From: Shigella phage sb1
Sequence record: PQ666539
Direction: 5' to 3' (one strand)
DNA length: 64,000 bases
In this document: positions 27,865 to 27,924 of the stretch, piece after piece
How the letters are laid out: every line of letters starts with the position of its first letter
Numbering within the stretch: the stretch's first letter is position 1
Program-made: the position numbers and the translations under genes
Notes under the pieces: model-generated
What the model was told of the DNA's origin: nothing
The model's database searches: none
The model's input: only the letters and a program-made list of their open reading frames with translations

Positions 27865-27895
27865 TTTGTGTTCCTCATGTTATGTCAGTAAGATT

Positions 27896-27924
27896 ATTAT
27901 AACACAACACGAGGGACTTGTAAA
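27896..27924 (-). promoter_or_regulatory. T4 early (sigma70-type) promoter: -35 TTTACA, 17-nt spacer, -10 TATAAT
   Basis: Minus-strand GTTTACAAGTCCCTCGTGTTGTGTTATAATAATC, about 30 nt upstream of the 27864 start. Confidence 0.6.

Follow-up and report, generated by a model that had tools for sequence, protein, structure and literature searches.

The present analysis concerns a 64,000-nt stretch of DNA from Shigella phage sb1 (sequence record PQ666539), here called the window, and within it two short cassettes in which an early promoter and a translational leader are joined. The window is Tequatrovirus DNA and is 97–98% identical to the best database genomes. Comparison with T4 places one cassette (copy 1) between a paralogue of alt, at the alt.-2 position, and alt.-3, and the other (copy 2) between rnlA (gene 63) and alc, both on the minus strand (Table 1). 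Copy 1 fills the entire space between its neighbours, the G of the TAG stop codon of the alt paralogue being the first base of the promoter motif GTTTACA. BLASTP gives no alignment between Alc and Alt.-3. On the minus strand copy 1 reads GTTTACAAGTCCCTCGTGTTGTGTTATAATAATCTTACTGACATAACATGAGGA and copy 2 reads GTTTACAAGTCCCTCGTGTTGTGTTACAGTAGTCTTACTGACATAACATGAGGA, and the two are identical at 51 of 54 positions. All three mismatches fall within or directly 3′ of the −10 hexamer (TATAATAAT in the alt.-3 copy, TACAGTAGT in the alc copy); the spacer is identical at 17 of 17 positions, and the leader is identical throughout from +1 to the Shine-Dalgarno (SD) sequence. These results confirm an earlier note on this DNA, which had described a 54-nt promoter and leader block nearly duplicated before two unrelated genes. 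The positions it gave for the blocks, 27866–27921 and 43607–43660, were wrong by 2–6 nt at their ends, but both blocks are real. Its reading of the motifs (GTTTACA, a 17-nt spacer, TATAAT or TACAGT, GAGGA, and start codons at 27864 and 43600/43597) also stands, and the likeness does extend through the leader as it had claimed, so the resemblance is not confined to the two promoter hexamers.

The promoter of copy 1 (TTTACA-17-TATAAT, with TG) scores 11/12 and that of copy 2 (TTTACA-17-TACAGT, with TG) scores 9/12; in T4 the hexamer is TATAGT. In both copies 7–8 nt separate the SD from the ATG. The late promoter sequence TATAAATA is absent from the block, and the promoter is of the early sigma-70 type.

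Table 1. Positions of the two cassettes, their parts and the adjoining genes in the 64,000-nt window
Feature	Position	Strand	Basis
Cassette copy 1, upstream of alt.-3	27872..27925	-	sequence
Copy 1 −35, TTTACA	27924..27919	-	promoter scan
Copy 1 spacer, 17 nt	27918..27902	-	sequence
Copy 1 −10, TATAAT, TG before it	27901..27896	-	sequence
Copy 1 predicted +1	~27889	-	prediction
Copy 1 SD, GAGGA	27876..27872	-	sequence
Copy 1 hairpin 5′ arm, TCCCTCGTGTTGTGTT (spacer up to first −10 base)	27901..27916	-	RNA fold and duplex energy
Copy 1 hairpin 3′ arm, GACATAACATGAGGA (transcribed leader including SD GAGGA)	27872..27886	-	RNA fold
alt.-3 coding sequence (DUF5498 protein, 92 amino acids here, 96 in T4)	27586..27864	-	
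TAG stop of upstream alt paralogue (alt.-2 position)	27925..27927	-	
Cassette copy 2, upstream of alc	43605..43658	-	sequence
Copy 2 −35, TTTACA	43657..43652	-	promoter scan
Copy 2 spacer	43651..43635	-	sequence
Copy 2 −10, TACAGT, TG before it	43634..43629	-	sequence
Copy 2 predicted +1	~43622	-	prediction
Copy 2 SD, GAGGA	43609..43605	-	sequence
Copy 2 hairpin 5′ arm, AAGTCCCTCGTGTTGTGT plus T	43634..43651	-	RNA fold
Copy 2 hairpin 3′ arm, GACATAACATGAGGACTT (including SD)	43602..43619	-	RNA fold
alc coding sequence, ATG ATG at 43600/43597	43094..43600	-	
In-frame stops inside alc of the window	43384..43382 and 43198..43196	-	
rnlA stop codon, 6 nt before copy 2	43665..43667	-	

No third copy was found in the 64-kb window with up to 3 mismatches allowed, and 100 shuffles gave 0 matches. 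T4 carries the same pair (53/54 identical), and in one metagenomic relative the two copies are identical at 54 of 54 positions. A BLAST search with copy 1 found 1001 places in 503 records, or about two per Tequatrovirus genome (~500 genomes), so the duplication is as old as the genus, and further copies are absent. For comparison with other early promoters, every GT[TG]TAC[AT]-N16-18-TAnnnT-SD-ATG arrangement in the window, the T4 segment, SHFML-11 and one Mosigvirus was collected and identity was taken over 50 nt. Pairwise identity among the other early-promoter cassettes had a median of ~0.5 and a maximum of 0.64–0.72, and that of the alc/alt.-3 pair was 0.94 in the window, 0.98 in T4 and 0.96 in SHFML-11. 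The two copies are a true duplication and not a product of promoter consensus. Both variants seen in the window are present in other natural genomes, the alc form in L003/L034 and the TATAATAAT alt.-3 form in L013, so the block itself is no artefact.

As RNA, each copy folds at −23 to −29 kcal/mol with z of −4.5 to −5.1, and 0 of 200 shuffles were equally stable (copy 1, −24.6 kcal/mol, z −4.99; copy 2, −28.6 kcal/mol, z −5.07). The 5′ arm, TCC(C)TCGTGTTGTGTT, is the promoter spacer, taken from three bases 3′ of the −35, and the 3′ arm is the leader, with the SD at its end. The stem comprises 15 pairs, three of them G·U, with one bulged C, and the −10 lies in the apical part or loop. At alc the stem is longer by three pairs, AAG/CUU, formed between the first three bases of the 5′ arm and a CTT just outside the 54-nt block, and at alt.-3 the 3′ partner of this extension is missing; extra pairs confined to alc point to alc as the native site of the cassette. 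The earlier note had suggested a shared regulatory RNA element, and the block is indeed a strong, co-varying RNA hairpin (fold z of about −5, together with the arm-swap test described below). Its placement of that element in the transcribed leader holds for the 3′ arm, but the 5′ arm is the spacer, which is untranscribed from this promoter, so that the hairpin can exist only in RNA reading through from upstream. A terminator scan found no U-tract or terminator-like site at either copy, nor between the upstream gene and the cassette, and the G+C-rich hairpin followed by a U-run that marks an intrinsic terminator is not present (the tails are ACACAAAAUG and CUUUAUGAUG). No Rfam family reached its gathering threshold in the whole window. 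A leader mini-open reading frame (ATG AGG ... TGA overlapping the main ATG, in both copies) was considered and rejected, being unconserved in other genera and devoid of an SD, as was a RegB site, the Tequatrovirus SD being GAGGA and containing no GGAG.

Junctions between rnlA and alc were taken from other genera and from metagenomes and folded. The same architecture upstream of alc, built from different co-varying arms, was found in at least 10 further groups of genus rank; several metagenomic lineages have it too. Its shared elements are GTTTACA, a spacer opening with an anti-SD stretch, pairing of that spacer with the SD-bearing leader, and the −10 in the loop. The 5′ and 3′ arms are ATCTCCGTTTAGTT and AACTAAACGGAGAT in Gelderlandvirus, TCTCCATTTGGTTGTGT and ACACTAACCAAATGGAGA in Karam-/Moonvirus, ATCCTCGTCAG and CTGATGAGGAT in Jiaodavirus, TCTCCTCAG and CTGAGGAGA in Roskildevirus, TCTCCTCAT and ATGAGGAGA in Dhakavirus, ATCCCATTTTGTTGTGT and ACACTAACAAAATGGGGAT in Kanagawavirus CIP9, and AACCTCTCATTTT and AAAATGAGAGGTT in Bragavirus. 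Claims about pairing rest on an arm-swap permutation test and on a gap-free sub-alignment. When arms were swapped among eight groups, the cognate duplexes totalled −149.6 kcal/mol vs −96.5 ± 10.8 kcal/mol for permuted ones, and the observed total was attained by 1 of 40,320 permutations, namely the identity permutation. The gap-free alignment of six sequences, which represents five different arm pairs (Karam and Moon have the same 5′ arm), had 94% of cells paired vs 32–52% with partners slid by 1–3 columns, and three pairs were altered on both sides. That the arms co-vary favors base pairing over a protein-binding site.

The picture of variation within Tequatrovirus rests on ~20 genomes, the scan of IMG/VR and metagenomes having yielded few T4-like loci. 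All seven substitutions at paired positions (7/7) are transitions that preserve pairing on the sense RNA (C-G to U·G three times, G·U to A-U twice, and U·G to U-A and U-A to U·G once each), the remaining changes being located in the loop or bulge. In every Tequatrovirus variant the sense strand is 5–13 kcal/mol more stable than the antisense. In the short-stem genera (Roskilde, Dhaka) the spacer pairs with the SD over a loop of 27–30 nt and not with the nearer +1..+10 region, which favors the SD as the partner under selection. From a plain MAFFT alignment of 26 cassettes RNAalifold returned no structure; this null was not counted against the fold, given that the arms are one base out of register between genera and that Tequatrovirus carries a bulge. 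A covariance model (six sequences, 56 hits aligned) misregistered the Tequatrovirus arms and drew antisense and unrelated promoter hits, and was not used for pair counts.

Five alc-bearing lineages show no pairing of spacer with SD, i.e. Mosigvirus, Tegunavirus, Kanagawavirus PEi20, and the Acinetobacter and Aeromonas phages. Mosigvirus alc has a small hairpin only, within the spacer; Tegunavirus and Kanagawavirus PEi20 have a hairpin with the −10 in its loop that ends just before the SD; the Acinetobacter phage alc has a terminator-like hairpin and the Aeromonas phage nothing comparable. In Gaprivervirus, alc is preceded by a terminator hairpin over the −35 and then by a local hairpin over the SD, with its 5′ arm directly after the −10, which is a similar logic with a different solution. 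Some observations on annotation arose at these junctions. In Gaprivervirus VR20 (L021, 154–387) a 77-amino-acid open reading frame (ORF) annotated as ‘similar to T4 Alc’ lies directly upstream of alc; it is a partial alc duplication, and the promoter cassette precedes that extra ORF. In two Mosigvirus loci (L024 and L056) the annotated alc start is 63 nt early, at the rnlA stop, and reads through the cassette; it is the ATG following the SD that is conserved.

Spacer and leader complementarity was also found to be general among early cassettes (p ~0.0004–0.0009, cassette scan). Shorter inverted repeats bracket the −10 on the minus strand of the window at 40333..40284 (GGTAGAG/CTCTACC) and 51529..51480 (AGGGTA/TACCCT), and further such cassettes occur in L001 at 12919 and 16332 (repeat arms GGTACAGG/CCTGTACC). 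In these shorter-repeat cassettes the spacer pairs with +1..+10 and the ribosome site lies outside the stem.

The history of the alt.-3 copy may be read from its orthologues. In Gapriver-, Dhaka-, Mosig-, Karam-, Marfa- and Kanagawavirus, alt.-3 has an early promoter at the alt stop codon (TAG/GTTTACA), with a small local hairpin in its spacer (CAC..GGA..GTG) and the SD free. On alignment the Tequatrovirus alt.-3 cassette is a mosaic in which both flanks match alt.-3 orthologues (...AAAATGTAGTTTACAA on one side, AACATGAGGA...ATGAAATC on the other) and a middle of ~37 nt matches alc. A patch of ~37 nt between the shared GTTTACAA and AACATGAGGA motifs would have been copied onto the alt.-3 promoter in the Tequatrovirus ancestor. 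Short-patch recombination from alc to alt.-3, with its ends in the shared −35 and SD motifs, is well supported, and the mosaic flanks, the longer alc stem and the different alt.-3 promoter elsewhere together indicate that the direction of copying was from alc to alt.-3. The hairpin is native to alc, where it is found in many genera. Ongoing homogenization or concerted evolution was not seen between the copies, which differ within a genome at 3–4 sites that are inherited orthologously. The recombination hot spot proposed in the earlier note is thus upheld as a past event, recorded in the alt.-3 mosaic, but not as continuing homogenization of the copies.

In Mosigvirus the alc and alt.-3 cassettes are also alike by eye, sharing TATCAACAACAYGAGGA, and their ungapped identity is not among the top pairs. 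The TATCAACAACAYGAGGA leader is common to many Mosigvirus cassettes. Conversion in the reverse direction is not claimed for this genus since the leader is widespread and the identity is not top-ranked. Near ndd in Mosigvirus vB_EcoM_G53 (L059, ~381–441) a small, unrelated ORF is preceded by an early cassette whose end, ACATGAGGAACACAAAATG, gives the leader, SD and ATG context known from Tequatrovirus alt.-3, and this cassette has its own hairpin, GGTAGGA/TCCTAC, over the −10. The ndd-region cassette suggests that leader modules are shared between genes and genera.

The arrangement of promoter and arms suggests a mechanism by which translation would be tied to transcription from the cassette’s own promoter. 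The block extends between the stop codon of the gene before it and the SD of the gene after it, and within it a sigma-70 ‘T4 early’ promoter (GTTTACA, 17 nt, TGnTAnnnT) is set in an inverted repeat, its spacer serving as the 5′ arm with the anti-SD stretch right after the −35, its −10 in the loop, and the SD-bearing leader as the 3′ arm. Because the 5′ arm is upstream of the −10, a transcript that begins anywhere downstream of the −10 lacks it; RNA from the cassette’s own promoter, with a predicted start ~7 nt past the −10 (the A of CTTAC as +1), would therefore be free of the 5′ arm and leave the SD exposed. RNA reading through from rnlA, or from alt and its paralogue, would carry both arms, form a hairpin of 15–18 bp and hide the SD. 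Alc and Alt.-3 would thus be made only during firing of their own early promoters and would be shielded from read-through transcription in the middle and late periods. By calculation the ribosome site (−13 to +3) takes 12–16 kcal/mol to open in read-through RNA vs 1–4.5 kcal/mol in promoter-proximal RNA, a range that covers both window copies, T4 and most of the hairpin-bearing genus-level groups tested (copy 1, 12.0 vs 0.8; copy 2, 15.5 vs 4.5). The contrast is weaker in Dhakavirus and in the metagenomic lineage L038, at ~9 vs 1 kcal/mol, and in cassettes that lack this design the difference in opening cost is mostly 1–4 kcal/mol. In the T4 time-resolved transcriptome and proteome (PMC9697503 supplement), alc and alt.-3 are early as RNA and as protein, and of the genes upstream alt is classed as late, the RNA of alt.-1/-2 as middle and the protein of rnlA as late. 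These timing classes fit a cassette that gives its gene early expression of its own together with insulation from the upstream neighbor.

We put at roughly 0.6 the probability that this is a cassette of the PeSL type (the composite of early promoter, stem-loop and SD of T4-type phages) which couples translation to its own early promoter. The duplication, the fold, the covariation of the arms, the geometry of promoter and arms and the mosaic structure are well supported. We infer where transcription starts, that read-through RNA exists and that translation is affected, and several considerations weigh against the proposal. In the literature covered, no experiment was found that maps a start site, detects a read-through transcript or measures translation for alc or alt.-3. 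Other genera’s alt.-3 manages without the hairpin, and the five alc-bearing lineages in which the spacer does not sequester the SD indicate that the device is not indispensable. Outside Tequatrovirus no consistent strand asymmetry was seen, so that strand specificity rests on one genus. In about half of the early promoters of T4 type the inverted repeat between spacer and +1..+10 is shorter and falls short of the SD, and a general stem-loop function such as the attenuation, 3′-end protection or recombination proposed for PeSLs could also cover the alc hairpin. A broader proposition is advanced tentatively, at somewhat short of even odds, namely that an early-promoter spacer bearing an anti-SD stretch is a conserved, unrecognized device, that alc translation depends on the promoter of origin, that the device has been kept by compensatory evolution in at least 10 genera, and that it is portable as a 54-nt module that moved to alt.-3.

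Among the alternatives, attenuation or 3′-end protection is the main rival, although we consider it unlikely. The hairpin would then be an ordinary PeSL stem-loop that attenuates or terminates read-through, or protects the 3′ end of the upstream mRNA, and the SD would be included incidentally, the stem being long and the intergenic space very short. Such a role is consistent with the PeSL stem-loops at promoter boxes described earlier, one of which reduces lacZ like rrnB T1 (PMC2839356, PMC4122927), with the generality of spacer and leader complementarity in early cassettes, and with the CUUUAUGAU that follows the alc-copy stem. It does not sit easily with the sequence that follows the stem, which at alt.-3 and in most of the other genera has no U-tract (GGAGAUUAAC, GGAGAAAACG, GAGGAUAUUG), or with the negative terminator scan at both copies; moreover, the short-stem genera pair the spacer with a distant SD across large loops, which make poor terminators, and the downstream genes (pseT.3, pseT and others) require continued transcription. 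Less probable still is that the near-identity is a recombination footprint only, the alt.-3 copy having no role other than that of a promoter and mattering mainly as a 54-bp direct repeat through which the intervening 15.7-kb segment can be duplicated or exchanged. The mosaic with its ends in shared −35 and SD motifs would be expected on this account, the tandem duplication of alt (repeat families D2/D4/D16) adjoins cassette 1, the Mosigvirus ndd-region cassette has the alt.-3 leader ACATGAGGAACACAAAATG, and exchanges and mini-circles mediated by PeSLs are documented (PMC2839356). However, although the copy has existed for as long as the genus, the only changes in its arms are transitions that preserve pairing, three of them in the alt.-3 copy of one clade; no continuing homogenization of the copies was seen, their within-genome differences being shared with orthologues; and a deletion between the copies would take out genes 30 and 31, which are essential.

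A DNA-level element, whether an operator for a protein or a structure (cruciform or single-strand hairpin) by which the promoter is modulated, e.g. in early-promoter shut-off, is a distinctly improbable explanation. The repeat does bracket the −10, the mechanism of T4 early-promoter shut-off is unexplained (PMC2988021), and in genera other than Tequatrovirus the two strands form hairpins of about equal stability, but a protein-binding site would be expected to keep a fixed sequence whereas the arms co-vary, and the Tequatrovirus stems contain three G·U pairs, all the changes observed in these stems keeping pairing only on the sense RNA and amounting to A·C mismatches in DNA or antisense RNA. 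Last, the resemblance might be thought to reflect an extended T4 early-promoter consensus or chance only, considering that T4 early promoters share GTTTACA, TGTG before the −10 and CTTAC around +1. This is already refuted by the cassette identity comparison and the shuffles, the pair being 94–100% identical over 54 nt vs a median of ~50% and a maximum of 64–72% elsewhere, with no match among shuffles.

Several features of the window were noted in passing. The gene alt is tandemly duplicated on the minus strand (27925–29982 and 29986–32043, as direct repeats spaced 2055 nt apart with 70–82% identity). Its paralogue is full length in SHFML-11 and teqhal, is decayed to alt.-1/alt.-2 in T4, and is broken by one stop here (29449–29451). 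In-frame stops also interrupt other conserved genes of the window, i.e. alc (Table 1), rnlA (44391–44393 and 44238–44240) and a gene-34-like frame from 57647 onward. Substitutions specific to the window relative to T4 and SHFML-11 affect 4% of sites, and 37% of them are transversions (many G>T and C>A), compared with ~20% for the two other branches; the window gives the impression of DNA that is error-laden or was perturbed on purpose rather than of a clean natural genome. Genes 54 and alt.-3 are convergent, and the perfect 9-bp G+C-rich hairpin between them (27548–27569), which has T-runs on either side, probably terminates transcription in both directions. The ORF at 15349..16767 (minus strand, 472 amino acids) contains two tandem 288-nt units with 76% identity (15911–16486) and, from its position beside inh in relatives, is probably hoc with an extra immunoglobulin-like domain. 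Five copies of a 71-nt coding repeat with 61–72% identity, one containing stop codons, lie at 57008–57987 and are probably the repeated motif of the proximal long-tail-fiber gene 34.

T4 is a reference system for timed phage gene expression, and how early functions are switched off is still unclear. If translation is indeed coupled to the cassette’s own promoter, the hairpin would be a simple, self-contained timer and insulator by which a gene is translated only from its own early promoter. This would explain the conserved spacer and leader of these promoters and would add a translational role to PeSL cassettes, so far discussed as terminators or recombination sites. The 54-nt module is small, portable and readily testable, and would be useful for engineering of phages or synthetic operons. 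Should attenuation or 3′-end protection prove to be the true function, the locus would still offer a clean co-varying PeSL copied between two genes.

Comparison with known systems places the cassette closest to the PeSLs of T4-type phages (Arbiol et al. 2010, PMC2839356; Comeau et al. 2014, PMC4122927), as far as these papers were covered. Like PeSLs, it has a strong sigma-70-like early promoter, a stem-loop at the promoter boxes and an SD located 3′. It matches the promoter pattern TTTACW-N17-TAYWAT of the T4/PST group in the promoter scan, both copies have the stop-codon-to-SD span typical of PeSLs, and a stable stem-loop lies at the promoter, with the −10 in its loop. The PeSL stem-loops, which contain G-T pairs, either lie between the −35 and −10 or overlap the −10, the latter being the class to which the present hairpin belongs; they are described from RB49/phi1, PST/T4 and nt-1/KVP40, and one of the stem-loops cut expression of downstream lacZ as strongly as rrnB T1. 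PeSL copies also recur within a genome and are exchanged by recombination between cassettes; here there are two copies per genome and a mosaic alt.-3 cassette, and no evidence of current exchange was found. The present cassette differs in that its stem is much longer, its 3′ arm is the ribosome site itself and no U-tract follows the stem. Moreover, PeSLs as described there lie around a small ORFan, whereas the alc and alt.-3 copies flank a 15.7-kb block with essential genes, and those papers treat termination or attenuation and gene shuffling, whereas translational gating is proposed here. The alc/alt.-3 cassette is an extreme PeSL member with the ribosome site as 3′ arm. Compared with T4 early promoters (Pe) in general (PMC2988021), it shares GTTTACA, the 17-nt spacer, a TGn extended −10, a good −10 hexamer and early-class genes; the identical spacer and leader and the complementarity between them go beyond the Pe consensus.

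The proposed mechanism has its closest parallel in T4 genes e, soc, 49 and I-TevI, whose long transcripts hide the SD and/or AUG in a helix and for which a promoter inside the 5′ part of the structure gives translatable RNA without the 5′ arm (PMC3014915 section 29). Neither alc nor alt.-3 is among the examples in that section, the T4 genome review and the 1980s alc/gene 63 sequencing papers lying outside the literature covered. As in those genes, the promoter of the present cassette is inside the hairpin and its own transcripts would lack the 5′ arm, which is predicted here from the geometry of the sequence together with a predicted start site; pairing of the SD in upstream transcripts is likewise a prediction, from the position of GAGGA in the 3′ arm. 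The difference lies in the promoter. That of e, soc, 49 and I-TevI is the late promoter TATAAATA, by which translation is delayed to the late period, whereas an early sigma-70 promoter in the same position would confine translation to the early period, making the alc/alt.-3 cassette an ‘early’ counterpart of these late-promoter hairpins.

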